A DNA stretch of 14,807 nucleotides, taken from NCBI GenBank assembly GCA_964358625.1, contig CAYHPG010000010.1, positions 1 through 14,807 on the forward strand, read 5' to 3'. Origin of the DNA: an uncultured Gammaproteobacteria bacterium (GTDB taxonomy: Bacteria; Patescibacteriota; Patescibacteriia; JACQSD01). The translations under genes were made by a program, and so were the position numbers. Position 1 is the stretch's first letter; the number at the start of each line of letters is the position of its first letter. This document shows, piece by piece, positions 1-14,781 of this stretch. The notes under the pieces were generated by a model. That model searched no databases. It saw nothing but the letters and a program-made list of their open reading frames with translations, and had not been told where the DNA came from.

Positions 1-549
1 TTCTGTCACACGCCGAAAATCAAACCGTTGGCACCGTGAAATAATCGTCTCCGGCACACGATCACTATCCGTCGTTGCAAGAATAAAAAGAACATTCGCA
101 GACGGCTCCTCAAGTGTTTTTAAAAGTGCGTTAAACGCGGCGGTCGAAAGCATGTGCACTTCATCAATGATGAATACTTTTGTTTTGCGCTCCAGTGCAG
201 CAACATGGCTCGCTGCAATAATGTTTTCCCGTACGTTATCAACACCTGTATGCGACGCCGCATCAATCTCCATAACGTCCAATGACCGCCCATCGGTGAT
301 CGCGATGCACGCATGACAGGTATTACAGGGCTCCACGTCATTCTTCTTTCGCCTCTCACAATTCACGGTCTTCGCGAGAAGACGAGCGGTGGTTGTTTTT
401 CCTACACCCCGCGTTCCAGTAAAAAGATACGCATGAACAAGTGATTCATGCGCTATTTCATTCGTTAGTGTCCGGATAATACCTTCTTGTCCTACAACGT
501 CAACCCATTTCTGAGGACGATACGTTCGATAAATTGATCGCAATTCCAT
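1..549 (-). CDS. dnaX: DNA polymerase III subunit gamma/tau, N-terminal part (gene runs off the left edge)
   Basis: Own minus-strand translation from ATG 549-547: MELRSIYRTYRPQKWVDVVGQEGIIRTLTNEIAHESLVHAYLFTGTRGVGKTTTARLLAKTVNCERRKKNDVEPCNTCHACIAITDGRSLDVMEIDAASHTGVDNVREN..FIIDEVHMLSTAAFNALLKTLEEP..IISRCQRFDFRR. It has the clamp-loader Walker A (GTRGVGKTT), the Cys-rich zinc module, a DEVH Walker B and the SRC motif. It is absent from the ORF track only because it is truncated by the window edge. Confidence 0.93.
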   Translation of the reverse strand, partial: MELRSIYRTYRPQKWVDVVGQEGIIRTLTNEIAHESLVHAYLFTGTRGVGKTTTARLLAKTVNCERRKKNDVEPCNTCHACIAITDGRSLDVMEIDAASHTGVDNVRENIIAASHVAALERKTKVFIIDEVHMLSTAAFNALLKTLEEPSANVLFILATTDSDRVPETIISRCQRFDFRRVTE

Positions 550-573
550 AGCTCCCTTTTCTTTTAAAATCAT

Positions 574-672
574 GAGGGGTGACCCGCGGAGGGGGTCCCC
601 CATCGAACCCCAGCAGTCCGGCGAAGCCGGACGATGCGGTCGGATGGGGGTGTAGCGGGGCAGGACCCCGAG
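574..672. ncRNA. GC-rich, highly self-complementary spacer: candidate structured RNA or composite palindromic repeat; identity and strand unresolved
   Basis: A 124-nt gap between the stop of the 178-aa ORF (674) and the dnaX start (549) is far more GC-rich than its surroundings. Complementary segments: tccggc 617-622 / gccgga 626-631 (loop gaa); cccccatc 597-604 / gatggggg 643-650; ggggtcc 592-598 / ggacccc 663-669. The position upstream of dnaX is where ffs/scRNA lies in many bacteria, but the SRP domain IV consensus is not present. Confidence 0.3.
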
Positions 673-673
673 A

Positions 674-1210
674 TTATACCTTAATCACATTTTCCACCGC
701 AGCCCATGCGCCTGCTCCGCCCTTCGGCACGAGAAGCACCACTTCATCGCCGACGTCACCATGATAATAGGTCACGCTTGCAAGCAAAAGTTTATAAACA
801 CGATCCTCTACAAGCCCGACAAACGTATCGCTCTCTGCTTCTTTTGCAAGTTTCCCGCGTAAGCGTTCGCGCTCAACTGGTCCAATCTGTTTAAAAATAA
901 ATGATCCGGACGCGGTAATCGTCAGCTTTAAAAGATCTCCCTCTACAAGCTTCGATTTCGATGCATAGTTCTGCGGGATCGCGTACGATTTCCCATCCCG
1001 CCCGATCATGGCAACGCCATTGAAAATGCCCTCAACGATATTTCCTTCATGCTCATCTGGAGCACGCTCAGTAATCAGCGAAGAAAGATCCACCGATTTC
1101 CCGGAAGAAAGTGCGTCGAGTGTCTGTTCAATCTGTTCAAAAATACTCCTCCCCTTCTCCGCGAGTTCCCGCAACAATGCAATATAATGGTCTTTATTTC
1201 CGTTTTCCAT
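674..1210 (-). CDS. hypothetical protein, 178 aa, last gene of the ATPase operon
   Basis: Clean ORF with an ATG start, located 57 nt downstream of the ATPase stop on the same strand. The composition is non-repetitive and globular-looking (..GIFNGVAMIGRDGKSYAIPQNYASKSKLVEGDLLKLTITASGSFIFKQIGPVERERL..). I recognise no family signature. Confidence 0.7.
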   Translation of the reverse strand: MENGNKDHYIALLRELAEKGRSIFEQIEQTLDALSSGKSVDLSSLITERAPDEHEGNIVEGIFNGVAMIGRDGKSYAIPQNYASKSKLVEGDLLKLTITASGSFIFKQIGPVERERLRGKLAKEAESDTFVGLVEDRVYKLLLASVTYYHGDVGDEVVLLVPKGGAGAWAAVENVIKV

Positions 1211-1267
1211 TTTATTTTATTTCGCTTTTATTTCTTACTCTTCAGTATAACAATTCTCTGCTACTCG

Positions 1268-3844
1268 TCAACGGCTTGCTTCCGCAAATTCAACGTCCGC
1301 ATCTTCCATTGCTTCCCCAAGCTGCGATCGTTCCAATATCTCTGCCTCCACAATCCGCTTATCGCGCCCATATTTCAACCGCGACAACTCTTTAATCATC
1401 GTTGCCAATTCCGTATTTCCTTTTCTCGGTGGAATCGTTTGCATGTTGAACGCCTTTCCCGCCTGATTATCAATAAGCAACTTTACATACGCTGTATATT
1501 TCTCCACATTGATCATGTCGTACTCATTAAAGACAGGCGCGAATTCTTTGGCGAGCACCTGCGCATCCTCAACACCAATCCGGAACGATACCATGGTTCC
1601 CGCGTTCCCGAGCACCGCATCACGCGTGCGCGTGTCTTTCCCGTCCTTCACGAGCTGCCCCATATATTGATGCGCGATAATAAGGTCCAACCGGTATTTT
1701 CGCGCTTCAGAAAGAATCGTCGCGATAGAGTCTGTAATAAAATTTTGGAACTCATCAATATAGAGATAAAAATCATTGCGTTGGTCTTCAGGAAGTTCCG
1801 CACGACTCATTGCCGCCATTTGCAGTTTTGCGACAATGATAAGCCCAAGCAGGTTGGAGTTCACCTCACCGGTTTTCCCCTTTGCCAAATTCACCAGCAA
1901 AATTTTCTTTTTATCCATCACCTCGCGAAAATCAAAACCGGATTTCTGCTGCCCCATGATATTGCGCATCATTTCGTTTTCAACGAACCGACCGACTTTC
2001 GAAATCAAATATCCAAGCATTTCGGATTTATGGAAATCGGACGTCTTTGCCATTTCTTTTTCCCAAAATGCGCGCACGATGGGATCCTTCACTTTCGACA
2101 CCCAATGTTTCTGATAATCAGCATCAGAAAACATACGCGGAATCTCGGCGATGGTTCCTGGGTTTCCCGGATCAGACATAAGTGTCAACATCACATTACG
2201 CATATTGTGCTCGAACATTGGCCCAATCATTTCCGGAGGGAAAAGCTTGTAAAAAATCCCAATCATTTCCTGTACCGCGTAATCACGCTGATCTTCGTTC
2301 CGCGTTTCCAGCATATTCAAGCCCACCGGACGCTCGGTGTCCGATGGGTCAAATATAATCACGTCATCCGCGCGTTCTTTTGGCACTGCAGAAAGAACAT
2401 CCTCAACAAAATCGCCATGCGGATCAATAACACATACTCCTTCACCGTTAATGACATCTTGCTTCGCCATGTTGCCAAGAAGCACCGATTTACCCACACC
2501 GGATTTACCGATGATATACACATGCCGACGACGATCTTCTTTTTTCAAATGAATCATCTTTGTCACACTGCGAAACGTATTTTTCCCCAAAAGTATTCCT
2601 TCTGTTGGTGTATTGACCGGCGCCGGCGCTTTCTTTGCGAGAAGCCATTGAATGTTCGGCGTTTCGGTCGTGGGTAAAGGAAAATGGTACAAGCTCGCCA
2701 TTTCTTCGGTATTCAAAATCAACTTTCGGCGTTCTCGATAATTCCGAAAAATAAAATCCCGAACAAGGCGCTTTTCGAGAAACAGTTTGAAAAATAATTT
2801 GCGTAAATGTTTGTGTGACGATGGTTTTGTTTTCTGAAGACTATTCCCATACTCATAGACGTTGAACTGACTAAATGCATTTGCGATATTTTCAAGAAGC
2901 ATTTCCGCGCGCTCCTGATCTTTCGACGACACAACAATCCGAATATTCACATCCATGCCTGCTTTCGCGGTTTTCTCTTCAAGCCCTTTCACCATCTCCT
3001 GTTCCAGTGGAGAGAGGCTATGCTTCTCTTTTGCTCCATCCATTCCATCTTTTTTCTTCGTCGTGAAATAATCAGTTAAATTCCCAATTGTTCGCAAAAT
3101 AAAATTCGCGTTCACCACGCGGAGTGCATGCTCCAAGGTCTTTCCCTGCTGCATTTCTTTTGCGACGCGCACTCCCCATTTATGCCAGACACCTTTTGCG
3201 GAACGAACGACGAATTGAATCACTGCGCCTTCAGTCGTATCAATTTTTGAAAGCGAATTGGTGAGCGAGTTCAACGTGTCCGATTCTATCTTCTTATATG
3301 TTTTCAAAGGGAAAAAGAACGAGCGCTTAAACGTCAAATACGTTCCAATCACCTTCCCCTGTGGTACAAAAATGTTATAGTCACTCGTCAAATCGATTTG
3401 TGCTTCAGGATATTGAGAATGGATTTGCTGTTCAATGTATTGCTGATGACGCGCGGGAATCGCAATATAAAAAGAAATCAGTCCCTTGTCAGCGACAATC
3501 TCAAATGCAAAATGATCCTCACGGCCAAAGAGCCATGCCTTGAGTCCACGTTGCGCGCGCATACCGCCAATAGACGCAAAAAATGTTTCGGCAACCGCAA
3601 TCTTCTCTTGCAAATTCTGATGCGTGATGGGCGTCGATTTTTCATCGCGTTTATCTTTTGCTGCTTCCTTCGGTAACGTCACGAGAAGCACAACCATCTT
3701 AAATGCAATGGAGAAACGATATCCATAATGCAAAAACCATCGCGCCAATTGCACGAGAATAATCGCCACGATAACGCCGCCAACATACGGCAATGCGTCA
3801 ATCACTGATGGAGGAAGCTCAAGATCGAAAAATAAAAAATTCAT
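1268..3844 (-). CDS. membrane-anchored P-loop ATPase of the VirD4/TraG/TraD coupling-protein or HerA-FtsK superfamily (858 aa)
   Basis: N-terminal hydrophobic helices (LPYVGGVIVAIILVQLARWFL.., FKMVVLLVTL). Walker A IIGKSGVGKS is encoded at 2486-2509. A VIDPHGD motif is present. Walker B FYLYIDEFQNF is encoded at about 1741-1775. ARKYRLDLIIAHQYMGQL is typical of the TraG/TraD C-terminal module. The 542-aa plus-strand ORF 1049..2677 is its antisense shadow. Confidence 0.85.
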   Translation of the reverse strand: MNFLFFDLELPPSVIDALPYVGGVIVAIILVQLARWFLHYGYRFSIAFKMVVLLVTLPKEAAKDKRDEKSTPITHQNLQEKIAVAETFFASIGGMRAQRGLKAWLFGREDHFAFEIVADKGLISFYIAIPARHQQYIEQQIHSQYPEAQIDLTSDYNIFVPQGKVIGTYLTFKRSFFFPLKTYKKIESDTLNSLTNSLSKIDTTEGAVIQFVVRSAKGVWHKWGVRVAKEMQQGKTLEHALRVVNANFILRTIGNLTDYFTTKKKDGMDGAKEKHSLSPLEQEMVKGLEEKTAKAGMDVNIRIVVSSKDQERAEMLLENIANAFSQFNVYEYGNSLQKTKPSSHKHLRKLFFKLFLEKRLVRDFIFRNYRERRKLILNTEEMASLYHFPLPTTETPNIQWLLAKKAPAPVNTPTEGILLGKNTFRSVTKMIHLKKEDRRRHVYIIGKSGVGKSVLLGNMAKQDVINGEGVCVIDPHGDFVEDVLSAVPKERADDVIIFDPSDTERPVGLNMLETRNEDQRDYAVQEMIGIFYKLFPPEMIGPMFEHNMRNVMLTLMSDPGNPGTIAEIPRMFSDADYQKHWVSKVKDPIVRAFWEKEMAKTSDFHKSEMLGYLISKVGRFVENEMMRNIMGQQKSGFDFREVMDKKKILLVNLAKGKTGEVNSNLLGLIIVAKLQMAAMSRAELPEDQRNDFYLYIDEFQNFITDSIATILSEARKYRLDLIIAHQYMGQLVKDGKDTRTRDAVLGNAGTMVSFRIGVEDAQVLAKEFAPVFNEYDMINVEKYTAYVKLLIDNQAGKAFNMQTIPPRKGNTELATMIKELSRLKYGRDKRIVEAEILERSQLGEAMEDADVEFAEASR

Positions 3845-4347
3845 GAATTTTTCTTTTGTTCTCGATGGAGCGTAATAATTTTATCTGCTTTGATCTTTGC
3901 TTCTTGTTCAAGGAAAAAAGAATTGATGTGCGGAATAATAGAAAGCCATTTTTGCAACAATCGCAACACTTTCAAAATATTCAAATGCACGGCGGCGAGC
4001 AATCGTTCGATTTTTTTTGCTGTATCTTCTCCGCGTCTTTTAAACTCCTCCCGCATGTTCGGAGGCATTTGCCAATATGCTTCCTCAAGGTCTTCCTCAA
4101 GAATTTCCTCAATCACTTGCAACACTTCGCTTTTCTTTATAACAGTGAGTGATGGCGCATCCGTGAAAGAAACAGCAGTCGATTGTTTCGAAGTCGGAGT
4201 ACGAGAAGACTCCGCAGCTTCTTGGGTCTGCGCAGAAGACTCTTCTTCCTTCTCAAAAATTTTCTCTCCTTCAATTGGTTGTTCCGTCGAAATGGGCTGT
4301 TGAGAAATTTCCGGAGAAATTGGCTTTATTTTCTGTGCTTCTGGCAT
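3841..4347 (-). CDS. hypothetical protein, 168 aa, acidic low-complexity N-terminus plus helical C-terminal domain; overlaps the ATPase start (ATGA)
   Basis: The ORF starts at ATG 4347. Its stop overlaps the ATPase ATG by 4 nt (3841-3844), which suggests translational coupling. An extended -10 lies directly upstream. I recognise no family. Confidence 0.7.
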   Translation of the reverse strand: MPEAQKIKPISPEISQQPISTEQPIEGEKIFEKEEESSAQTQEAAESSRTPTSKQSTAVSFTDAPSLTVIKKSEVLQVIEEILEEDLEEAYWQMPPNMREEFKRRGEDTAKKIERLLAAVHLNILKVLRLLQKWLSIIPHINSFFLEQEAKIKADKIITLHREQKKNS

Positions 4348-4353
4348 AAACGA

Positions 4354-4362
4354 ATTATACCA
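4354..4362 (-). promoter_or_regulatory. extended -10 promoter element TGgTATAAT for the 168-aa/ATPase operon
   Basis: The minus strand reads agTGgTATAATtcgtttATG. The consensus hexamer is at 4359-4354 with TG at 4362-4361. Only 6 nt separate the hexamer from the ATG at 4347. Confidence 0.5.
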
Positions 4363-4375
4363 CTTTTTATGAATT

Positions 4376-4404
4376 TTGTACTCTTATCCACAATAGTGTA
4401 AAAT
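4376..4404 (+). promoter_or_regulatory. candidate sigma-70 promoter of the corA-like gene (-35 TTGTAC, 17-nt spacer, -10 TAAAAT)
   Basis: ttgtac 4376-4381, spacer 4382-4398, taaaat 4399-4404, then gaagct and ATG at 4411. Confidence 0.4.
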
Positions 4405-4410
4405 GAAGCT

Positions 4411-5328
4411 ATGCACATACGAGAACTCACCACACCAACAGTACGCTGGGTAAACGTCACTCGCCCAGAAAAACGCGAATTAGACTACCTCGCGAAAGAA
4501 TTTAAATTCCATCCCCTTGACCTTGAAGATTGCGCCTCGCCGGCCCAGCGACCAAAGATTGATGAATATCCCCATTACCTCTTCCTCGTCCTTATTTTCC
4601 CGCTCTATAACCGCAAAACAGGGGAAATTATTCCTACAGAGATCGATTTCTTCATCGGCGAAAAATATCTCGTAACGGTCCATCGCAGCGAACTCTTTCC
4701 CTTCATGCAATTTTTCGATGAATGTCGCAGTGACCTTGTATTACAAAAGCGCGTCATGACTGCTCCTGAACAATTGCTCTATGAAATACTCGAACGCCTT
4801 CTCATGCATACCTTCCCCATGCTCGACAATATCAATCTTGACATTACGCGCATTCAAAAAGAAATATTTGCCGGGAATGAACGGCGTGTCGTCCGCGAAA
4901 TTCTCGCAACAAAACGGAATATTGTAAATTTCCGCCGCGTCATGCAAGCGCATAAAGCGATGATCCGTCGCGTCAAAGAAAAACAATCAAAATTCTGTAA
5001 AGGAAAATGTGTTGTCATCTATTTTGATAACCTCGTCGAACACACGAAAGATATTTGGGATACACTCGAAAATCAAAAAGATACTATTAATGCGCTACAA
5101 GAAACCAACGAATCGCTGATTACATTCCAGTTGAACGACATCATGAAATTGTTGACAATCATTTCCGTCATCATGCTTCCTGCGGGGCTCGTCGCAAGTC
5201 TTTTTTCAACAAACGCGGAATACACTCCTCTTGTTGGTACTCCGGGAGATTTTTGGATGCTCGTTGGTCTCATGGGTCTTGTGGCGCTCGGCATGATCGC
5301 ATTCTTTAGAAAAAAGAAATGGCTGTAG
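4411..5328 (+). CDS. corA: CorA-family divalent cation transporter with a non-canonical pore motif
   Basis: 305 aa. It has a CorA-like N-terminal domain (..IDFFIGEKYLVTVHRSEL..), two C-terminal TM helices and a basic tail: LLTIISVIMLPAGLVASLFSTNAEYTPL..FWMLVGLMGLVALGMIAFFRKKKWL. This aligns by eye with Thermotoga CorA ..IAGIYGMNFEYMPEL..VVYFKKKKWL. Confidence 0.82.
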   Translation: MHIRELTTPTVRWVNVTRPEKRELDYLAKEFKFHPLDLEDCASPAQRPKIDEYPHYLFLVLIFPLYNRKTGEIIPTEIDFFIGEKYLVTVHRSELFPFMQFFDECRSDLVLQKRVMTAPEQLLYEILERLLMHTFPMLDNINLDITRIQKEIFAGNERRVVREILATKRNIVNFRRVMQAHKAMIRRVKEKQSKFCKGKCVVIYFDNLVEHTKDIWDTLENQKDTINALQETNESLITFQLNDIMKLLTIISVIMLPAGLVASLFSTNAEYTPLVGTPGDFWMLVGLMGLVALGMIAFFRKKKWL

Positions 5329-5370: not shown

Positions 5371-5412
5371 CTGTCTTCACTGTCTTCACTGTCTTCACTG
5401 TCTTCACTGTCC
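5371..5412 (+). repeat. tandem repeat, 9-bp unit ctgtcttca x4 plus partial ctgtcc, ending immediately at the cysS ATG
   Basis: Read directly: ctgtcttca at 5371, 5380, 5389 and 5398, then ctgtcc at 5407-5412, then ATG at 5413. Confidence 0.92.
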
Positions 5413-6852
5413 ATGCTTCGTTTTTACAATACATTAACTCATAAGAAAGAAGTATTCGTACCGATGCGCGAAGGACGCGTCGGTCTTTATACCTGCGGGC
5501 CGACCGTCTACAACTACGCGCACATCGGTAATTTGCGTACGTACATTTTTGAAGATGTGCTTCGACGCGTGCTTGAATACACAGGATTGCATGTCACGCA
5601 CGTCATGAATATAACGGATGTAGGGCACCTCACGTCAGATGCAGACACCGGTGAGGACAAAATGGAGAAGGGCGCGCGGCGAGAAAAGAAAACCGTCTGG
5701 GAAATTGCGCAATTCTATACCGACCTTTTTAAAAAAGATATGGCAGCGCTTCATATTAAAGAGCCGACGATTTGGTGCAAGGCGACGGATCATATCAAAG
5801 AGCAAATTGATCTTATAAAACGCCTCGAAAAAAAAGGCTACACCTATACGACCCAAGACGGCGTCTATTTTGACACATTAAAATTTCCATCGTACGGAGC
5901 GCTCGCGCAATTAAATGTGAAAGGACAAAAAGCTGGTGCACGTGTAGAGATGGTGAAGGGTAAAAAAAATCTTGCGGATTTCGCGCTGTGGAAGTTCTCA
6001 AATCCGAATGGTAGTCCTTCGACGGGCTCAGGACATCTGCCGAGGCGGCAGATGGAATGGGCTTCTCCATGGGGAAAGGGCTTCCCCGGCTGGCATATTG
6101 AATGCAGTGCCATGGCGATGAAATATCTCGGCGAAGAGTTTGATATCCATACCGGTGGCATCGACCATATCCCGGTGCATCACACGAACGAAATCGCGCA
6201 AAGCGAGGCGGCAACAGGGCACGCGTTCGTGCGCTACTGGCTCCACGGAGAATATCTCATCGTCAATAGTCCCCCTCTTCATGTAAGAGGGGCAGGGGGA
6301 GTTATTGAAACTAAAATGGCGAAATCCGGAGAAAATTTCACGAGACTCCAAACGCTCACCGATCAACGCCACGATCCCCTCGCCTACCGATATTTCGCGC
6401 TCACCGCACACTACCGAAAACAACTCACCTTCTCATGGGAAGCGCTTGAAGCAGCGGAACAAGGACTAAAAAATCTTCGCGAACGACTTTTTGAAAGTGG
6501 TAATACAATTGGAGAACTCCCGAATACGATCAAGAAAAAATTTGGTGCAATCATCGGCAATGATCTCGATATGCCAAAAGCGATCGCATACCTCTGGGAA
6601 ATCGTCAAATCAAAAAAGTCGGGAGCCATAAAACGCGCCGCGGCGCAAGAATTCGATAAAATTTTCGCCCTAGATCTTCTTGCACACAAAGCCGAACCCG
6701 TACCGGAGCATGTGATGATTCTCGTGCGCGAACGCGAAGACGCGCGAAAAAATAAAGAGTGGCAAAAATCCGACGACCTGCGCAAACGCATCCTCGAGGA
6801 AGGGTGGGTTGTGGAGGATACTTCCCAAGGCTCGCATGTGAAGGCCGTTTGA
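5413..6852 (+). CDS. cysS: cysteine--tRNA ligase
   Basis: LYTCGPTVYNYAHIGNLRTY (HIGH motif), WHIECSAM, and KMAKS (the KMSKS motif). 479 aa. It carries two short GC-rich insertions (see repeat features). Confidence 0.95.
   Translation: MLRFYNTLTHKKEVFVPMREGRVGLYTCGPTVYNYAHIGNLRTYIFEDVLRRVLEYTGLHVTHVMNITDVGHLTSDADTGEDKMEKGARREKKTVWEIAQFYTDLFKKDMAALHIKEPTIWCKATDHIKEQIDLIKRLEKKGYTYTTQDGVYFDTLKFPSYGALAQLNVKGQKAGARVEMVKGKKNLADFALWKFSNPNGSPSTGSGHLPRRQMEWASPWGKGFPGWHIECSAMAMKYLGEEFDIHTGGIDHIPVHHTNEIAQSEAATGHAFVRYWLHGEYLIVNSPPLHVRGAGGVIETKMAKSGENFTRLQTLTDQRHDPLAYRYFALTAHYRKQLTFSWEALEAAEQGLKNLRERLFESGNTIGELPNTIKKKFGAIIGNDLDMPKAIAYLWEIVKSKKSGAIKRAAAQEFDKIFALDLLAHKAEPVPEHVMILVREREDARKNKEWQKSDDLRKRILEEGWVVEDTSQGSHVKAV
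6014..6054 (+). repeat. in-frame GC-rich insertion in cysS: diverged copy of the PSTSSGQ 22-mer followed by a 9-bp-stem hairpin
   Basis: gtccttcgacgggctcaggaca (6014-6035) matches the reverse complement of the dnaK/grpE 22-mer at 17 of 22 positions and encodes SPSTGSGH. catctgccg-agg-cggcagatg (6034-6054) is an inverted repeat whose right arm encodes the RQM of the ..RRQMEWASPWG.. stretch, which I take to be native sequence. Confidence 0.6.
6268..6303 (+). repeat. in-frame hairpin insertion in cysS directly before KMSKS (encodes SPPLHVRGAGGV)
   Basis: cccctctt (6272-6279) catgt aagagggg (6285-6292) followed by caggggga. It has the same architecture as the intergenic CCCTC..GAGGG hairpins at 6971-7018, 9357-9379, 9427-9447 and 9851-9871. 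Confidence 0.6.
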
Positions 6853-6855
6853 TTT

Positions 6856-6913
6856 GTCATTGCGAGGCCGAATATTCCCCGAGCGAAGTCGAGGGGGCGG
6901 CCGAAGCAATCTC
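6856..6913. repeat. GC-rich repeat of the gtcattgcgag...gaagcaatctc type, with an embedded cgagcgaagtcgag motif
   Basis: It begins 4 nt after the cysS stop. It shares gtcattgcga and caatctc with the element at 8118-8188. The internal cgagcgaagtcgag (6880-6893) recurs in the hrcA leader (13091-13102, 13115-13124). Confidence 0.55.
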
Positions 6914-6970
6914 AAAACATTAAGATGCTCGACATCTCGGGCATTTTTTGTTATGCTCTCGTTCGTATCG

Positions 6971-7018
6971 TAACCCCACCCTTCCTCCCCTTATATAAGG
7001 GGAGGTGAGGAGGGGTTA
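6971..7018. repeat. 48-bp imperfect palindrome (core cctccccttatataaggggagg) upstream of dus
   Basis: taacccc..cctcccctta|taaggggagg..ggggtta. The outer 7 bp and the inner 10 bp of the two arms are perfectly complementary. Confidence 0.7.
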
Positions 7019-7033
7019 TATTCGTAAACGCTT

Positions 7034-8032
7034 ATGAATTTTTGGACAACACTCACAAAACCCATCCTTGCTCTCGCGCCGATGGCGGGGGTGACGGATG
7101 CCGCATTTCGCCCGCTCGTGAAGAGTTATGGCGCGGATGTTATCTACACCGAATTCGCCTCAACGCACGCGCTCATCCACGGCAACGAAGCAACGCGCCG
7201 CATGATTGGCTTTGAACCGGAAGAACAACCGGTCGTGTGTCAGCTTTTCGGCAATGAGCCGGATAAATTTGCCGAGTCTGCAAAAATTTTGGAGTCATTG
7301 GGCTTTGCCGGTGTGGACATCAACTTCGGTTGTCCCGCATATAAAGTCGTCACTCATGGCGGCGGAGTTGTGCTCATGAAAGAGCCAGAGCAGTGCAGAA
7401 AAATCGTCGAGGCAACCTGCAACGCCATCAAAATCCCCGTCTCCGTAAAAATCCGCGCGAGCATCCGTTGCGATATACAAGGGGCACCCTTGTCGTCGAC
7501 AAGGGTGCCCCTTGTAACGGCGTGCGATCTCGTCAACCAAATCAAAGACCTCCCCGTCGCCGCGCTCATGATCCACGGCCGCTCGTATGAACAACCGTTC
7601 GACGGATGGCCCGATGTCTCAATGATCACCGCAGTCAAAAAAATCTTCCCCGGCATCCTCCTTGCGAATGGCGGCGTCCACACACCGGAAGATGCAAAAA
7701 AACTCTTAGACGAAACCGGCGCCGACGGCTTGGGTATCGCTCGCGGAAGCTGGGGCAAACCGTGGATCTTTCAACAAATCCGCGACTACCTCGCCACCGG
7801 TTCATATGTGAAGCCCACGTGGGATGAAATCGTCGCGGTCATTATCCGTCACGCGGAAATGGCAAAAAAATATAAATCAGCGCACGGATTCATCGAACTT
7901 CGCAAACACTTGGCGTGGTACGTCAAAGGCATTCAGCACGCATCGACACTGCGCCAACAACTCGTCCGCGTAAAGACGCTTGAAGAAATAATCGCCATCC
8001 TCCAAACCGTCCCTGCGCTTGCAAAAGTGTAG
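7034..8032 (+). CDS. dus: tRNA-dihydrouridine synthase
   Basis: LAPMAGVTDAAFR, VDINFGCP (catalytic Cys region), PVSVKIR and IHGRS. 332 aa. Confidence 0.9.
   Translation: MNFWTTLTKPILALAPMAGVTDAAFRPLVKSYGADVIYTEFASTHALIHGNEATRRMIGFEPEEQPVVCQLFGNEPDKFAESAKILESLGFAGVDINFGCPAYKVVTHGGGVVLMKEPEQCRKIVEATCNAIKIPVSVKIRASIRCDIQGAPLSSTRVPLVTACDLVNQIKDLPVAALMIHGRSYEQPFDGWPDVSMITAVKKIFPGILLANGGVHTPEDAKKLLDETGADGLGIARGSWGKPWIFQQIRDYLATGSYVKPTWDEIVAVIIRHAEMAKKYKSAHGFIELRKHLAWYVKGIQHASTLRQQLVRVKTLEEIIAILQTVPALAKV
7477..7515. repeat. perfect 39-nt palindrome inside the dus CDS, in frame (13 codons)
   Basis: acaaggggcacccttgtcg-t-cgacaagggtgccccttgt has 19-bp arms that are exact reverse complements. Each arm is itself a 7-bp-stem hairpin (acaaggg-gca-cccttgt). 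It encodes ..IQGAPLSSTRVPLV.. Confidence 0.9.
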
Positions 8033-8194: not shown

Positions 8195-9286
8195 CTATAA
8201 CCCTTCTTTTTGTAATTGTTCCAACAAATCGCGCTGGCGACGACTCACATCTTTCGGTGTCCTCACCTGCACATGCACGAGATGATCACCTCTGCCGCCG
8301 GATTTCAAATGCGTCACGCCCTTTCCCTTCAAACGAAACTCCTGTCCTGCTTGCGTCCCTGCTGGAATTTTGAGCGCCACCACACCATCAACCGTCTCCA
8401 CATCAATGGTCGCTCCAAGTGCCGCTTGCGAAAAAGAAATACCCGCTTGCGAATGTAAATCATCGCCGTCGCGCTCAAATCGCGTATCCGTCGCAACCCG
8501 CACCGTTAAATACAAATCGCCCGCTTGCCCACCACGATCTCCTACCTCGCCTTCGCCCGTGAGTCGAATCGTCTGTCCATCAGCAATCCCTGCAGGAACT
8601 TTGACGCGCATCTTTCGCAATTCTTTTGCAACTCCTCCGCCACGACATTTTGAACAAACGGTTTCAAAGCGCTCGCCCTGCCCGCCGCATACCTCGCACG
8701 CGACAACGGTTTCTACTGTCCCCAGAAATGTCCGCTGTGCCTGACGCACTTGCCCCTGACCGCGACATGTTGTGCATGTCTTCACCGTACTTCCCGGCTC
8801 GGCGCCTTTCCCATGACAACGATCGCACGCCACCGTTTTCCATAACTCAATCTCTTTCTCAACACCAAAAACAGCATCATGAAATGTAATTTTTATATCT
8901 GCTTGAATATCACGTCCTTTCCGTGCACGTGATCGCGCTGTTCTCCGTCCGCCTCCGCCTCCAAATATTCCACCAAAAAGATCTCCAAGATCTTCGAAAT
9001 TCACGCCCATTCCCTCAGTAAATCCCGTAAAATCCCGAAACCCCTCAAAGCCACCCATCCCGCCTTGTGCCTGTGCCTGCTCAAACGTCGTGCCGTACTG
9101 ATCATACTGCTTCCTTTTGTCCGCGTCTGACAGCACCTGATACGCCTCGTTCACCTCTTTGAATTTTTTCGGATCGCCTCCTTTATCCGGATGCAACTCG
9201 TGCGCCAGCTTTCTAAATGCACGTTTAATCTCATCCTGCGATGCGGACTTCGAAACTCCTAATACATTGTAGTAATCCTTTGCCAT
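8195..9286 (-). CDS. dnaJ: molecular chaperone DnaJ
   Basis: J domain ([12 protein letters not shown]), a G/F-rich region, four CxxCxGxG zinc-finger repeats and the C-terminal substrate domain. 363 aa. Confidence 0.96.
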
Positions 9287-9330
9287 TTATTAACGAAACA
9301 CGAATGTATAACCTCCTCTCCCCTTGTGGG

Positions 9331-9472
9331 CTGTGAATTACGAAACTCTCTTTATTCCCTCTCCCTCAATGGGAGAGGGTTAGGGTGAGGGTGGAAATAA
9401 GGGGCTTTACACACCCTCCCCTTTGTCCCCTCCCATCAAGGGAGGGGAAAACCGGAGTTTCGTAATTCACAG
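9331..9472. mobile_element. MITE-like non-autonomous element, 142 bp, perfect 18-bp TIRs, 8-bp flanking direct repeat
   Basis: The TIRs are ctgtgaattacgaaactc (9331-9348) and gagtttcgtaattcacag (9455-9472). The direct repeat cttgtggg lies at 9323-9330 and 9473-9480. Internal hairpins are ccctctccc-tcaat-gggagaggg (9357-9379) and cccctccc-atcaa-gggagggg (9427-9447). There is no ORF. Confidence 0.7.
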
Positions 9473-9485
9473 CTTGTGGGAGAGG

Positions 9486-9833
9486 TTAGGGAGAGGGGAA
9501 AAGATGTTTATTAATTTCCTCACCTACTCCTTCGATATTTTTCAAAACATCATTATTCCAAAAACGGAGCACCGTAAATCCTTGATTCCGTAACCATTGA
9601 TCCCGCACTTGGTCTTTCAACGTATGTGTTTCCTCTGCATGTTGCCCGCCATCAAGTTCAATAACAATTTTTTTAGCGAAACAAACAAAATCAACAATGT
9701 AATCTCCAATAATCTCCTGTCGTCTAAATTTTAGTCCATGAAACTGTTTTGCTCTCAGATAATGCCACAACAATTTTTCTGCTTCGGTGGAATTTTTTCT
9801 AAGGTCTTTGGCAAAAGCAATGAGATGCTTCAT
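9486..9833 (-). CDS. DUF559 endonuclease-domain protein (Vsr-like restriction endonuclease fold), 115 aa
   Basis: From ATG 9833: MKHLIAFAKDLRKNSTEAEKLLWHYLRAKQFHGLKFRRQEIIGDYIVDFVCFAKKIVIELDGGQHAEE..RDQWLRNQGFTVLRFWNNDV. This is the characteristic DUF559 pattern. The longer ORF-track start (9902) would overlap dnaK and reads through a repeat. GGAGG lies 7 nt upstream of the 9833 ATG. Confidence 0.85.
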   Translation of the reverse strand: MKHLIAFAKDLRKNSTEAEKLLWHYLRAKQFHGLKFRRQEIIGDYIVDFVCFAKKIVIELDGGQHAEETHTLKDQVRDQWLRNQGFTVLRFWNNDVLKNIEGVGEEINKHLFPSP

Positions 9834-9850
9834 ACGACACCCTCCCCTCA

Positions 9851-9871
9851 CCCCTCCCATAAAGGGAGGGG
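9851..9871. repeat. hairpin repeat cccctccc-ataaa-gggagggg between the dnaK stop and the DUF559 start
   Basis: Read directly. It belongs to the same family as 9427-9447. The adjacent cctcccctca (9841-9850) completes the family's tail motif on the minus strand (tgaggggagg). Confidence 0.65.
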
Positions 9872-9873
9872 GA

Positions 9874-11739
9874 CTACTTCTTCTCCTTAAAATCAGCGTC
9901 AATCACATCACCAGACTTTGCGTCCTTTTTGTCATCATCTTTCTGCCCTGAGCTTGTCGAAGGGTTCGTTTTTTCCGCTTCCGCCGCGGCTTTATATAAA
10001 TCCCCGCCCACCTTCTGAATCGCCTCACCCAAAGCATCAACCGCTTTGCGCAACGCCGCCGCGTCACTGCCGTCTTTTGCCTTTTTCACCTCGACAATTT
10101 TTTCCTCAATCGGTTTCTTCACATCATCCTTCACTTTGTCGCCCGCGTCTTTCAATGTCTTCTCGGTCGTGTGAATAAGCGCATCCGCCTGATTGCGCAA
10201 ATCAATGAGTTCCTTCTTCTGCCGATCCTCGGTTGCATGCAGTTCCGCCTCTTTTTTCATCTTCTCGATTTCCTCTTTTGAAAGCGCGGAAGAATCTTTA
10301 ATCGTAATGTGCTGCGACTTCGCCGTTGCTTTATCTTTCGCGGTCACCGTCAAAATTCCGTTTGCATCAATGTCAAATGTCACTTCTACTTGCGGTACAC
10401 CACGCGCCGCCGGAGGAATGCCGTCCAAAATAAATCGCCCAAGCGTACGATTATCGCTCGCCATCGGCCGTTCTCCTTGTAATACATGAATCTCCACCGA
10501 AGTCTGGCTGTCCGCGGCCGTTGAAAATACTTGTGACTTCGATGTTGGAATCGTTGCGTTGCGCTCGATTAAGGGTGTCGAAACTCCACCCATTGTCTCA
10601 ATACCAAGTGTCAACGGCGTCACATCGAGCAAGAGCACGTCTTTTACGTCACCGGAGAGCACCGCCGCTTGCACTGCCGCGCCTTTTGCGACGCATTCCA
10701 TCGGATCCACCCCGCGCTCAATTTTCTTCCCGATAAAATCTTCCACGAATTTCTGGACAATCGGCATGCGCGTCGGACCACCGACCATAATCACTTTTTC
10801 GATTTTTGCCGGCGTCAACTTCGCGTCCGTAATTGCCTGCTCCATCGAATGACGGCATCGCTCCACGATCGGCTTCACAAGATCTTCCAATGTTGCGCGC
10901 GTCATCTTCATCGTCATGTGCTTCGGGCCGGATGCATCAGCGGTAATAAACGGCAAGTTGATTTCCGTTTCGAGTGTCGAAGACAATTCAATTTTCGCCT
11001 TCTCTCCTGCTTCTTTCAAGCGTTGCATTGCCATCGAGTCCTTACGCAAATCAATCCCTTCTTTTTTCTTAAACTCATCAGCGATATAGCCAATCATAGC
11101 GTTATCCATGTCCGTACCCCCGAGTTGCGTGTCTCCGGATGTTGATTGCACTTCAAAAACCCCTTCACCAAAATTCATGATCGTCACATCAAGTGTGCCG
11201 CCACCAAGATCAAACACCAGAACCATCTGATCTTTCTTGCCCTTTCCTGTTTTATCAAGACCATAGGACAACGATGCCGCGGTCGGTTCATTAATAATAC
11301 GCACGACTTCAAGACCAGCGATTGCGCCTGCATCTTTTGTTGCTTGGCGCTGTGCATCATTAAAGTACGCAGGAACGGTAATCACTGCTTTTTGTACTGG
11401 TTCACCCAAAAAGCTCTCCGCATCACGCTTGATTTTTTGCAAAATAAACGCGGAGATTTGTTGTGGCGTGTATTCTTTGTCGCCGATTTTCCACTTGAAA
11501 TCCGTTCCCATCTTCCGCTTTGCGGCGTAGATAGTGCGATCCGGGTTTGCCACAAGCTGACGCCGTGCGGGCTCACCAACTAAAAGTTCACCTTCTTTCG
11601 TAAACGCCACATATGAAGGGAACGCCTTCCCTCCAAGTGTTGCCCCTTCCGCAGACGGCACAATCACAGGACTATCGCCCTGCATGACCGCGGCCGCTGA
11701 ATTAGATGTTCCTAAATCGATTCCAATAATTTTGCTCAT
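9874..11739 (-). CDS. dnaK: molecular chaperone DnaK (Hsp70)
   Basis: [20 protein letters not shown] and a full-length Hsp70 architecture. 621 aa. Confidence 0.97.
9944..9965 (-). repeat. 22-mer tgccctgagcttgtcgaagggt inserted in the dnaK C-terminal tail (encodes PSTSSGQ)
   Basis: It is identical over 22 nt to 11930-11951 in grpE. It is in the same orientation relative to the host gene and in the same reading frame. Confidence 0.85.
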
Positions 11740-11820: not shown

Positions 11821-12381
11821 TTATTCTGCAATAATAACTTTTGGCGTAACAAACGATTTTCCGTGGAGCGTATAGCCCACACGCACTTCTTCTATAATCG
11901 TATCCGGTTCAATCTTTTTACTCTGCGCTTGCCCTGAGCTTGTCGAAGGGTCGATGGGCTTCTTTTTCCCTACCACTTCATCATGCATCGGGTCAAACTT
12001 TTTGCCCATCACGTCCATTCGCGCGACACCTGCTTTCTTCATAAAATCTTCAAAGCTCTTTTTTACTTGCGCCATACCCTTACCCCATGGCGTCTCTGCA
12101 ACTTCTTTTGGCATCTCCGCGCACGCTTTCATGAATGCTTCATACGTTGGTAGTAAGTCACGAAGAGTGCTCGTAACGGCAAAGATAATAAAATCAGTCC
12201 GTTGCCGCTCGATATCTTTCTCGCGATTCACAAAATCCGCTTTCGACCGCTTCCATCCGGTCAAATATTCATCTGCCTTCTTCTGGCATTTCTCCAATTC
12301 TTCTCGAAGCTTCTGCGCTTCTGGAGATTCAATTAATTTTTCCTCCGGCTGTTCAGATAAAAGTGCGTTAGTCATTGCCAT
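11821..12381 (-). CDS. grpE: nucleotide exchange factor GrpE
   Basis: 186 aa, lying between hrcA and dnaK. It has a coiled-coil N-terminus, then ..LLPTYEAF.., ..FDPMHDEVV.. and ..VRVGYTLHGKSFVTPKVII. Confidence 0.9.
   Translation of the reverse strand: MAMTNALLSEQPEEKLIESPEAQKLREELEKCQKKADEYLTGWKRSKADFVNREKDIERQRTDFIIFAVTSTLRDLLPTYEAFMKACAEMPKEVAETPWGKGMAQVKKSFEDFMKKAGVARMDVMGKKFDPMHDEVVGKKKPIDPSTSSGQAQSKKIEPDTIIEEVRVGYTLHGKSFVTPKVIIAE
11930..11951 (-). repeat. 22-mer tgccctgagcttgtcgaagggt inserted in grpE (encodes PSTSSGQ)
   Basis: Identical to 9944-9965. It lies between the FDPMHDEVV segment and the C-terminal beta domain. Confidence 0.85.
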
Positions 12382-13075
12382 ATTTCGTTATAATTTCTCG
12401 CGCATATTTTGCGAGCGCGATGTTTGCTGCATAATCCATACGCGTCGGGCCTAAAATTCCAAAAAGTTGATCTTCGTCTTTCCCGTATCGCACAACCACC
12501 ACGCTTGTGTCGTTACCAAACGGATTTTCATCACCAATGGCAACCGCAAAATCATCGTGCACGGATGTGGCAAACTCTGCCATCGTCTCATCAAGACGGT
12601 CAAACACATGCGACATCGTTAATGCAAGATCGTGATCGGAAAATTCCGGTTGTGCGAGGAGATACGACAGCCCCGTATAATAGACATCGTCAGACGTAAA
12701 TCCGACAAGAATCGCTTCATGCGCCACCTCCGCAACAACTCGTGCAAGTTCCTTTACGCGGAGTCGTTTATTTTCAAAACTTTTTATGCATCGTTCTTCA
12801 ATCGTCTCCCGTTCTTTCTTTGCAAGTGGTTTTTCTGCGAGACAATGTGTCACATAATACCGATATCCTTTTATCGTCGGCACGCGGCCGGCAGAGGTAT
12901 GCGGGTGCGTCAAATATCCTTCCTCTTCAAGCGCCGCAAGTGCATTGCGTACCGTTGCTGAACTTACGGAAAGTCCATATTTCCCTGCGAGCAATTTCGA
13001 ACCAACGGGCTCTGCTGTCCGTATATGTTCTGCGACTACCGCTTCCAATAATGCCGCTTTTCTCCCTTCGAGCAT
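12368..13075 (-). CDS. hrcA: heat-inducible transcription repressor HrcA (short form, about 235 aa)
   Basis: The N-terminal winged helix has the HrcA signature: EPVGSKLL..LSVSSATVRNALAALEEEGYLTHPHTSAGRVPTIKGYRYYV. The C-terminal motif GPTRMDYAANI is present. I place the start at ATG 13075; the ORF-track start at 13081 is a TTG. The 3' end overlaps the grpE start by 14 nt. Confidence 0.88.
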   Translation of the reverse strand: MLEGRKAALLEAVVAEHIRTAEPVGSKLLAGKYGLSVSSATVRNALAALEEEGYLTHPHTSAGRVPTIKGYRYYVTHCLAEKPLAKKERETIEERCIKSFENKRLRVKELARVVAEVAHEAILVGFTSDDVYYTGLSYLLAQPEFSDHDLALTMSHVFDRLDETMAEFATSVHDDFAVAIGDENPFGNDTSVVVVRYGKDEDQLFGILGPTRMDYAANIALAKYAREIITKYGND

Positions 13076-13088
13076 AAGCAAAGTATTC

Positions 13089-13164: not shown

Positions 13165-13191
13165 TTAGCACTCGCTATCCGAGAGTGCTAA
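13165..13191 (-). promoter_or_regulatory. CIRCE operator (HrcA binding site), perfect consensus
   Basis: TTAGCACTC-gctatccga-GAGTGCTAA is an exact 9-N9-9 inverted repeat. It lies 4 nt downstream of the -10 box of the hrcA promoter. Confidence 0.95.
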
Positions 13192-13195
13192 TTCC

Positions 13196-13224
13196 ACTAT
13201 ACAAAAAGAAAAAAAACGTGTCAA
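13196..13224 (-). promoter_or_regulatory. sigma-70 promoter of the hrcA-grpE-dnaK operon
   Basis: The minus strand reads TTGACA (13224-13219), a 17-nt spacer, TATAGT (13201-13196), ggaa, then CIRCE. Confidence 0.8.
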
Positions 13225-13254: not shown

Positions 13255-14655
13255 ATGTCACAATCACACGCCGACACATCACTTTGGGAAAAAGATCAAG
13301 TATTCTTGAAGGAAGAACGCGAAAAACACCCAGAACTCTTCATGCGGGAAGCAGGTGATCCGCATGTACTCCTCACTCGTATTGGTGTCACCGCACTCCC
13401 CAAAAGTCTTCCAAAAGGATACTTGCGTTTTTCCCCGTTTGATTTTCTTGTTGAAGAAATTCGAAAAAATGGAAACCCCGTCGCGCTCGATGGGAAAGAT
13501 GTAGTTCCAGAAGCCGGAAACGCAGGCGACACGATCTATGCCGATTGCATAAAAGTCGGAATCTCCACTCTTGATGCGGCACAACGTATTGCCGATGCGC
13601 TTAGCATCCCACCGCAAAAAATCGGCTATGCAGGCATCAAAGACGCAGTTGCCATTACCGCCCAGCGCGTGAGTATTCGCAATGCTTCACGTGAAAAGGT
13701 TCAAGCGCTCTCACTTGCCAATATCCTTCTTCGTAATATCACAACGGGCAAAGGCGCCGTGAGCGTTGGCGAGCTTGGCGGCAATCGCTTTACGCTTTTC
13801 ATTCGCACCGAACGCCGCCTCGATACGGCGCATCTCGCAAATCTCCTTACGCATTACGAAAAAATGGGGTTTGTGAATTACTACGGCACGCAACGCTTTG
13901 GCACTCCCCGCTTTCTCGCGCATCTCTTTGGCATGTATCTTCTCCGCGGCGATCTTCCTTCACTTGTCCGCGCATATCTCACCGCAGAAAGCCAGTTTGA
14001 ACTCCCGGCAATACAAAAAGTACGACAAGAGGCAGCAGCGCATTTTGAAGACTGGCAGAAGATGTATGGCGCGTTCGATCGACTCCCCTACACCTTCCGT
14101 TTCGAGCGCATTATGCTCGACACGCTCATGAAAACAAAAAATGACTACGCGAAAGTCATTGTTGCTATGGGTGATCAGGCGGATCTTTGGGCGCGCGCAT
14201 ACGCAAGCTATTGCACAAACCGTCTTCTCTCGCACGCCATCACAACGAAACAAGAACTACCAAAAGAACTCCCCTTGCTCCTTTCTGTGCGCAAAGAAGA
14301 TCACGCGCCCTACCAGTCATTTCTTGCGGCAGATAAAACGGAAAAATTCACCGAAATTTTGAAACGATTTCCGTTTATTCATCTTGGCAATGCACCAAAA
14401 ATAGAAGCGCGCATGCTTCCAAAGGTGCATGGCGTGCGTGTGGTGAAGGAAGGCGTTGCCATTGCATTTGATCTTGGCAAAGCTGCATACGCAACAACAT
14501 TCCTCCTTCACCTTTTCACGATCATAACCGGTACACCAATTCCCGATTGGGTGCAGGATACGGAATATGACACAAAAGAATTGCTCGGGCTTGGGTCGTT
14601 AGAGGCAATAAAAGAGAAATTGGGAAAGTACATTAATAAGCCTGTGTCATCCTGA
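13255..14655 (+). CDS. truD: tRNA pseudouridine synthase TruD/Pus7 family (long form, 466 aa)
   Basis: SPFDFLVEEI (the N-terminal PEDF-V-E motif), GYAGIKDAVAITAQRV (the catalytic GxKD..A.T.Q motif) and NYYGTQRFG. The last codons and the stop lie inside a repeat. Confidence 0.88.
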   Translation: MSQSHADTSLWEKDQVFLKEEREKHPELFMREAGDPHVLLTRIGVTALPKSLPKGYLRFSPFDFLVEEIRKNGNPVALDGKDVVPEAGNAGDTIYADCIKVGISTLDAAQRIADALSIPPQKIGYAGIKDAVAITAQRVSIRNASREKVQALSLANILLRNITTGKGAVSVGELGGNRFTLFIRTERRLDTAHLANLLTHYEKMGFVNYYGTQRFGTPRFLAHLFGMYLLRGDLPSLVRAYLTAESQFELPAIQKVRQEAAAHFEDWQKMYGAFDRLPYTFRFERIMLDTLMKTKNDYAKVIVAMGDQADLWARAYASYCTNRLLSHAITTKQELPKELPLLLSVRKEDHAPYQSFLAADKTEKFTEILKRFPFIHLGNAPKIEARMLPKVHGVRVVKEGVAIAFDLGKAAYATTFLLHLFTIITGTPIPDWVQDTEYDTKELLGLGSLEAIKEKLGKYINKPVSS

Positions 14656-14671
14656 GCGAGAGCGAAGGATC
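14646..14671. repeat. repeat of the gtcatcctgagcgagagcgaaggatc type, spanning the truD stop codon
   Basis: Read directly. The TGA at 14653-14655 lies inside the motif. The motif is related in form to gtcattgcgag..(6856, 8118). Confidence 0.55.
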
Positions 14672-14677
14672 CCCTGA

Positions 14678-14781
14678 CTGTGCATTACGAAACCCCCTTT
14701 TATATCCCCTCTCCCTCGATGGGAGAGGGTAGGGTGAGGGTGAAAATAGGGAGGGGAAAATCGGAGTTTCGTAATTCAAAG
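14678..14781. mobile_element. second, degenerate and internally deleted copy (104 bp) of the MITE-like element
   Basis: The TIRs are ctgtgcattacgaaac (14678-14693) and gagtttcgtaattcaaag (14764-14781), each one mismatch from copy 1. It shares the interior ccctctccc-tcgat-gggagaggg-t-agggtgagggtg (14707-14741). It lacks about 40 bp corresponding to 9401-9440 of copy 1. Confidence 0.6.

Follow-up and report, generated by a model that had tools for sequence, protein, structure and literature searches.

How a gene for a predicted DUF559 nuclease came to stand between dnaK and dnaJ, and what the inverted repeats framing it do there, is the question raised by a 14,807-nucleotide (nt) stretch of contig CAYHPG010000010.1 (GenBank assembly GCA_964358625.1), referred to here as the window. 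The initial annotation had read the gene and its hairpins as a selfish nuclease-plus-repeat module riding on a heat-inducible chaperone transcript. The selfish-module reading is supported by the present comparison, as the cassette recurs in unrelated contexts with homology stopping at the repeats, and it is probable that the DUF559 gene and the repeats form one selfish unit, with the gene embedded in two inverted three-arm ends. The cassette measures ~416 bp, or ~558 bp including the later insertion of a miniature inverted-repeat transposable element (MITE). Its parts, with the two genes between which it lies, are as follows.

9874-11739, minus strand: dnaK, upstream neighbour of the insertion
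9840-9872, minus strand: left end (TM-L), a hairpin with a mirror third arm
9486-9833, minus strand: DUF559 gene of 115 amino acids (aa), ATG at 9833, TAA at 9486-9488
9473-9498, minus strand: right end (TM-R), proximal part, with C-arm CCCCTCTCCC, TAA and first hairpin half CCTCTCCCACAAG
9331-9472, minus strand: MITE-like insert of 142 nt in the TM-R loop, with 18-nt perfect inverted ends CTGTGAATTACGAAACTC
9315-9330, minus strand: right end (TM-R), distal half of the split hairpin, CCCACAAGGGGAGAGG
8195-9286, minus strand: dnaJ, downstream neighbour of the insertion

Ends, nested MITE and protein of the cassette

Both ends follow a three-arm layout in which a pyrimidine arm (C-arm), a loop, a complementary purine arm (G-arm), a short loop and a mirror purine arm succeed one another. 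On the coding strand TM-L reads CCCCCTCCC-tttat-GGGAGGGGT-g-AGGGGAGGG after the dnaK stop codon and is followed by tgtcgt-ATG; its hairpin proper occupies 9851-9871 (-9.6 kcal/mol as DNA), and the GGAGG that stands 7 nt ahead of the ATG comes from its third arm, confirming the Shine-Dalgarno sequence initially proposed there. At the other end of the gene, the open reading frame (ORF) closes with CCC TCT CCC (PSP) and TAA, both part of TM-R, the outer C-arm CCCCTCTCCC coding for PSP, so that the last codons do read into the downstream repeat as had been noted. The halves of the TM-R hairpin lie at 9473-9485 and 9315-9330, parted by the 142-nt element, and both framing hairpins thus stand where they were first placed. 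TM-R carries no T-run and, as an inverted three-arm motif, is more than a plain hairpin. The consensus CCCTCYCC-N5-GGRGAGGG given in the initial annotation held exactly at 9357-9379 and 14707-14729 and only approximately for the cassette, the hairpins of which have the variant arms CCCCTCCC/GGGAGGGG and CCTCTCCC/GGGAGAGG.

Using a strict criterion, whereby the third purine arm mirrors the second (G*G, A*A or T*A) and loops are of 1-6 nt, seven three-arm motifs (TM-L included) and the split one were found in the 14.8-kb window, whereas 30 dinucleotide shuffles yielded no motif. Where the arms were asymmetric, 43 cases agreed better with mirror symmetry than with direct repetition, 10 favoured the direct-repeat rule and 29 were ties. 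By their architecture, the G/C-rich hairpins of the cassette belong to the three-block class known as BoxC, PIT elements or TMECO intrastrand triplex motifs (TM) (Bachellier 1999; Hoyne & Maher 2000, 2002; Holder et al. 2015, PMC4666352), which comprises 23 copies in E. coli MG1655 with five inverted type-A/type-B pairs and has been found in >260 genomes (PMC4666352). Only the E. coli motif has been shown to form a triplex in vitro, and TM loci were tied to local genomic instability (PMC4666352); the same TM sequence is described in a preprint as G-quadruplex-capable. The E. coli TMECO consensus CCCTCNCCC-N3-6-GGGNGAGGG-N3-GGGNGAGGG was fitted by the window repeats at 9356-9391 and 14706-14740 (type-A TTA loop), and the cassette's own ends, with the CCCCTCCC and CCTCTCCC arm variants, depart from its literal form. 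A search for a described RNA family in 9250-9950 (Rfam, E <= 10) returned nothing but spurious microRNA-type hairpins far below gathering scores, and hence no such family.

The split of the downstream hairpin, rightly recognized at the outset, is accounted for by the nested MITE. An 8-bp target duplication, CCCACAAG on the minus strand, is present at 9323-9330 and 9473-9480, and this duplication within the hairpin loop, taken with the 18-nt inverted ends, points to a MITE-type insertion into a once-intact CCTCTCCC-ACAA-GGGAGAGG. The interior of the MITE is itself an “empty” TM-L/TM-R pair (9414-9449, minus; 9356-9391, plus), and the whole element is predicted to fold into four stems with two third arms paired (-46.3 kcal/mol, z -10.4). 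No transposase matching the MITE was seen; a second copy, internally deleted, lies at 14678-14781 downstream of truD. The mirror third arm, the membership in the BoxC/PIT/TM class and the cause of the split are additions to the earlier description.

The ORF and a Pfam match confirmed a 115-aa DUF559 gene between dnaK and dnaJ, the match to PF04480 (E 1.4e-42, 144.4 bits against a gathering cutoff of 20.6) aligning residues 4-111 with profile positions 3-108 of 109 and hence covering the full-length domain. The gene caller placed the start at ATG 9860 (124 aa), whereas homologues align from ATG 9833; in an exact look-up, the 115-aa form had no record in the contig index. The protein shared ~50% identity with N. 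gonorrhoeae NGO0050 (PDB 3hrl; E 1.6e-26) and 49% with E. coli YcjD, and scored 111 bits with the YcjD equivalog NF007294 against a cutoff of 218, which makes it a relative rather than an orthologue of YcjD. An AlphaFold2 model (pLDDT 88.3) predicts a Vsr-like PD-(D/E)XK fold, in line with the Vsr fold first attributed to the gene. In Foldseek the model matched, in this order, 3hrl (TMt 0.85), the catalytic domain of the homing endonuclease I-Bth0305I (3r3p; probability 1.00, TM 0.76-0.78) and Vsr (1vsr/1cw0), with weaker structural matches to TnsA and R2 endonuclease. Every family-invariant residue, as taken from 31-32 homologous sequences, is present, both in the core D...E-x-D-G-x-Q-H and RFW (D48, E59, D61, G62, Q64, H65, R90, F91 and W92), for which a catalytic role may be assumed from homology, and beyond it (T16, E19, W23, F36, Q39, F49, D74, R77, G85 and N99).

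Two more specific assignments of the protein were rejected. Vsr itself has the same fold, clan and metal-binding Asp/His core, but canonical Vsr function is not indicated, as TIGR00632 gave 18.7 bits, far below its cutoff of 97.85, and the window contains no C5-cytosine methyltransferase gene. A recognized defence-system component is not indicated either, PADLOC and PHROGs giving weak domain-level matches only (a DpdF fragment, phage HNH/homing-endonuclease families). The DUF559 family is very large, with >8000 close matches from one search, and its small subfamily is rare outside chromosomes, with 45 of 72,556 plasmid records and three of 50,697 phage records containing it.

The cassette and its repeats in other genomes

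Three syntenic relatives (L005, L006 and L007), with DnaJ identities to the window of 93%, 86% and 79%, share the order truD / hrcA-grpE-dnaK-dnaJ / dus / cysS / corA / VirD4-like. Their dnaK-dnaJ spacers are as follows.

L005, 440 nt: an unrelated 78-aa Cys-rich ORF and another palindrome
L006, 116 nt: without DUF559 and without cassette repeats
L007, 72 nt: without DUF559 and without cassette repeats

As none of the three spacers contained DUF559 or cassette-type hairpins, the gene is not ancestral at this site, and the comparison shows, at the level of sequence, that the cassette is a lineage-specific insertion between dnaK and dnaJ. In L005 the ORF (7563-7799) has two CxxC pairs and no Pfam match and is followed by an unrelated long palindrome; with so different an insert in the closest relative, the dnaK-dnaJ spacer is a recurrent landing site for varied inserts.

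The closest DUF559 homologues, 76-80% identical, were found in genomic contexts unrelated to dnaK-dnaJ: upstream of dnaG-rpoD in L003 and L004, and between large surface-protein genes in L001/L008. L003, L004 and L008 have in common the left end CCCCTCCC-TTGAT-GGGAGGGG-..-GGGGAGGGTG, a few nt before the ATG, and the right end CCCCTCTCCC-TAA-CCCTCTCCC-ACAA-GGGGAGAGGG with an intact TM-R hairpin, CCCCTCTCCCTAACCCTCTCCCACAAGGGGAGAGGG. In blastn comparisons with the window, homology extended only from ~-45 to +13/+23 around the ORF; its ending at the repeats defines a unit of roughly 410 bp. Judged by these alignments, a single unit of gene and ends is shown to occur in unrelated contexts. The four cassette copies gave pS values of 0.46-0.70 (synonymous sites near saturation) and dN/dS values of 0.08-0.20 with nearly identical repeat arms, and this combination of low dN/dS and near-unchanged arms argues that both the protein and the ends are under constraint.

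The proposed association of DUF559 with the hairpin family proved strong and extended beyond this genome. A genome-collection scan covered 75 loci with relatives at 36-76% identity from Alpha-, Beta-, Gamma- and Deltaproteobacteria, Nitrospirota, Chloroflexota, Actinomycetota, Deinococcota, Bacteroidota, Melainabacteria and several lineages of the candidate phyla radiation (CPR), the region from -150 to +45 of the start being scored on the coding strand with neighbouring genes as controls. The three-arm motif was present upstream of 54/77 DUF559 loci (70%) and 3/149 neighbouring genes (2%), giving a Fisher odds ratio of 114 (p = 8e-30), against a background density of 0.15 motifs per kb in the same loci; on the opposite strand it occurred in the same region of only 18/77 loci. 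An inverted motif at the stop codon was found in 24/69 DUF559 loci as compared with 7/149 neighbouring genes (Fisher p = 2e-8), and many homologues, including E. coli YcjD, have a C-terminal PSP or PSPxPSxxGRG that corresponds to translated right-end repeats. In many phyla, then, a small DUF559 gene is directly preceded by the motif in coding-strand orientation, and its stop codon is often overlapped by an inverted copy. Arm sequences vary by lineage, with pairing and the mirror relation kept. The nearest protein neighbour had the same repeat class in 40/46 cases, a value reached in 0/2000 permutations, also with cross-taxon pairs alone; this agreement fits co-transfer or co-evolution, though not uniquely.

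Most copies of the repeat have no gene, occurring singly or as “empty” left/right pairs. The exact 21-mer hairpin CCCCTCCCTTGATGGGAGGGG was found on at least 120 metagenome contigs, and among 84 copies examined five had a DUF559 gene beside them and 79 were gene-less, nearly all with the third arm. Many gene-less copies are left-spacer-right pairs with loops as in the cassette ends, and others are right-then-left junctions; the spacer is 1 nt in L119 and ~8-40 nt in most other empty pairs. As in homing-type elements, the ORF therefore interrupts a sequence that also exists uninterrupted, in these pairs and in the one within the window MITE.

Three-arm repeats were also observed within coding genes. 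In the window, cysS (5413-6852, plus strand) contains a solo repeat in frame at 6271-6303 (36 nt, ~12 aa, “SPPLHVRGAGGV”), directly before the KMSKS motif of cysteinyl-tRNA synthetase, and this insertion is missing from L005 and L006. In L067 (Candidatus Uhrbacteria, JACPJN010000009, region 1-4850), 14 three-arm repeats occur in 6.3 kb, with right-left pairs in frame at four places in uvrA (peptides such as NPPQPSLTLREGDRSVPPLRVRGGAGGV) and at two in uvrC, and a DUF559 gene between both. With the 14 repeats lying ~400 nt apart, an integron-like cassette array was considered for L067 and rejected when the ORF listing revealed the in-frame insertions in uvrA and uvrC, which resemble Rickettsia palindromic elements.

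These distributions bear on two other accounts of the repeats. They could be ordinary signals of the DUF559 mRNA, namely a 5' hairpin with the ribosome-binding site and a stabilising 3' hairpin, the other copies having unrelated uses. The third arm does hold a GGAGG-like sequence and ends 1-30 nt before the start in most loci, and the motif keeps a set orientation with respect to the coding strand; but at the 3' side there is more than a hairpin, namely an inverted three-arm motif lacking a T-run, identical motifs are found in gene-less pairs, in a MITE and as in-frame parts of coding genes, and the E. coli elements had no promoter or terminator activity according to Hoyne & Maher as cited in PMC4666352, so that we regard this account as very unlikely. 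The other holds that independent repeats pile up in variable spacers and that a DUF559 gene gained by horizontal transfer merely came to lie in one of these hot spots. The window is indeed repeat-dense and the dnaK-dnaJ spacer variable, with different inserts in L005, L006 and L007, yet coincidence of this kind is strongly disfavoured, its probability being minimal, by an occupancy of 70% versus 2% that holds across phyla at constant orientation and spacing and by the same ends on copies in four contexts.

A probable selfish module, a host nuclease as rival reading, and known systems

If the unit is selfish, DUF559 would be the autonomous partner, with solo and paired repeats as its non-autonomous copies. 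The nuclease would recognize the repeat, as duplex or as extruded hairpin or triplex, and nick or cut there, and break-induced copying by host repair would then bring the filled element into the cut site in a homing-like manner. PD-(D/E)XK enzymes hydrolyse DNA without strand transfer, TnsA for example needing TnsB, and it is because such an enzyme cannot transfer strands itself that spread would have to rely on host repair. The I-Bth0305I homing endonuclease, as second-best structural match, gives a fold precedent for mobility. With the ribosome-binding site provided by the left end, a promoter-less gene could be expressed by read-through, here from a CIRCE/HrcA-controlled operon.

Several observations weigh against a selfish module. 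No target-site duplication was visible at the four cassette borders, and no orthologous pair of vacant and filled repeats was found, the relatives lacking the repeat pair as well as the gene at dnaK-dnaJ, which leaves homing into vacant pairs unproven. The cassette contains no DDE, serine or tyrosine transposase and is thus not a transposon of the insertion sequence or MITE type, although its ends are inverted. Among the DUF559 loci, 23/77 had no strict upstream motif; in E. coli, the ycjD copy has lost its own; and the co-variation of protein and repeat is also expected from plain co-inheritance. The gene was co-oriented with its upstream neighbour in 46/69 loci, which is close to the usual bacterial background and so lends no specific support to read-through expression. 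For the YcjD-type subfamily, we know of no nuclease activity or substrate. Finally, purifying selection on the DUF559 gene is strong, and the gene is for the most part found once per genome and on the chromosome, which also fits a host function.

This last point leads to the main rival, a host maintenance or repair nuclease acting on the non-B DNA (hairpin, triplex or G-quadruplex) of the repeats, for instance at stalled forks. The repeats would then be binding sites of the nuclease, allowing autoregulation and the co-transfer of “problem and remedy”. Besides the mode of selection (dN/dS 0.08-0.20) and the single chromosomal copy, it is favoured by the relationship of the protein to Vsr, by VsrA of Caulobacter, a DUF559-domain protein that behaves as a DNA-damage-linked endonuclease (PMC12907096), and by the instability of TM loci reported in E. 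coli (PMC4666352). It leaves unexplained the exact placement of left and right repeats with the stop codon inside the right one, the end of homology at the repeats between copies in unrelated contexts, and the missing unit at the same site in close relatives, and we consider it unlikely.

The selfish module resembles REP/RAYT systems (REPtrons) in that one small nuclease gene lies between inverted copies of a repeat with many gene-less solo or paired copies elsewhere, and in that protein subfamily and repeat type go together. RAYTs, however, are HUH/Y1 single-strand transposases with covalent intermediates, whereas DUF559 belongs to the hydrolytic PD-(D/E)XK enzymes, so the chemistry of spread must differ, and the cassette repeats have a third, mirror arm. 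The window protein had no Y1_Tnp match and is REPtron-like by layout only, not a member. With I-Bth0305I (3r3p), a free-standing homing endonuclease, the catalytic fold is shared, as is an ORF set amid sequence that is also found vacant; I-Bth0305I differs in being intron-encoded in a phage gene and in having an extra DNA-binding domain, and the putative DUF559 target is a dispersed repeat pair with only ~35 bp of common sequence on each side. The published BoxC/PIT/TM elements have the same pyrimidine, purine and mirror-purine arms and, like the window repeats, inverted left/right pairs. The window repeats differ from them in bracketing a gene, sitting in a MITE and lying in frame in cysS, and no associated mobility function was reported for the published elements, Holder et al. 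stating that none had been found near TM repeats (PMC4666352). By analogy, a REP/RAYT-like layout, a presumably homing-endonuclease-like chemistry and triplex-motif ends together would describe a repeat-associated nuclease.

E. coli YcjD and NGO0050 (3hrl) are, like the window protein, small stand-alone members of one DUF559 subfamily. The C terminus of YcjD is SPSP*, and, unlike the window gene, ycjD has no upstream motif left; a TM motif, TMECO no. 9, lies ~170 nt downstream of it in E. coli K-12. The fabI-ycjD spacer of this strain (L083 4030-4440) was seen to contain a degenerate right-end hairpin, a duplicated ycjD 3'-end fragment and then TMECO no. 9. Among E. coli genomes ycjD occupies one locus (median of one place per genome), where an eefRABC efflux island replaces it in ~2050/5426 complete genomes, and BoxC pairs harbouring a further copy were not seen; a single-locus gene without such copies makes E. 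coli uninformative as a homing test.

More broadly, and as a tentative extension that we hold to be possible but doubtful, YcjD-type DUF559 proteins may be the missing partner enzymes of BoxC/PIT/TM repeats throughout bacteria. Enzyme and repeats together would then make up a selfish element of a new class, its hydrolytic Vsr-fold nuclease recognizing ends able to form non-B DNA and driving the copying of itself and of gene-less pairs, the in-frame insertions into essential genes of CPR bacteria (cysS; uvrA and uvrC in L067) included. If this is true, two old unknowns explain each other, namely DUF559, with a solved structure and no established function, and the BoxC/PIT/TM repeats, known in E. 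coli since the 1990s and present in hundreds of genomes, in a parallel to the way in which RAYTs explained REP elements. With one ycjD and 23 motifs, E. coli K-12 would be a ready and cheap system in which to test the link between YcjD and TM. DUF559 and the repeats are each known, and their linkage was not found in the searchable literature: no paper connecting DUF559 or ycjD with BoxC or triplex repeats was retrieved by a search that reached few subscription journals, so that an earlier description is possible, and Holder et al. 2015 (PMC4666352) make no mention of DUF559, ycjD or endonuclease.

Operon setting and neighbouring repeats

The remaining features of the chaperone operon are as follows.

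13165-13224, minus strand: CIRCE operator and sigma-70-like promoter of the hrcA-grpE-dnaK-(DUF559)-dnaJ operon
12368-13081, minus strand: hrcA
11821-12381, minus strand: grpE

The CIRCE element is perfect (TTAGCACTC-N9-GAGTGCTAA, 13165-13191), a TTGACA-17-TATAGT promoter lies directly upstream of it, and no terminator-like site was found on the minus strand from dnaK to dnaJ. On these grounds it is plausible that the DUF559 gene rides on a CIRCE/HrcA-controlled, heat-inducible transcript, as the initial annotation had suggested. The window DnaJ had its best matches in Candidatus Uhrbacteria-like Patescibacteria. For this genome, the finding shows that invasion by three-arm elements is tolerated both in an operon of core chaperones and in the gene of an essential tRNA synthetase.

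Other repeats were found in the neighbouring spacers. Between cysS and dus (6972-7017), two three-arm repeats of another subtype (CCTCCCCTT/AAGGGGAGG) overlap to form a 46-nt near-perfect palindrome; this subtype is also present at syntenic sites in L005 (10929-10973) and L006 (3473-3519). Hairpins of a second family (“cgagcgaagtcgag / gagcgagagcgaagga” type) follow cysS (6855-6915) and truD (14645-14672) in the window and also lie in the dnaK-dnaJ spacer of L007 (6373-6392). An 858-aa VirD4/TraD-like coupling-protein homologue is encoded at 1268-3844 (minus strand), with synteny kept in this CPR lineage and a DUF87/TrwB-type counterpart in L005, and the corA-cysS spacer (5371-5406) contains the 9-mer CTGTCTTCA four times in tandem.

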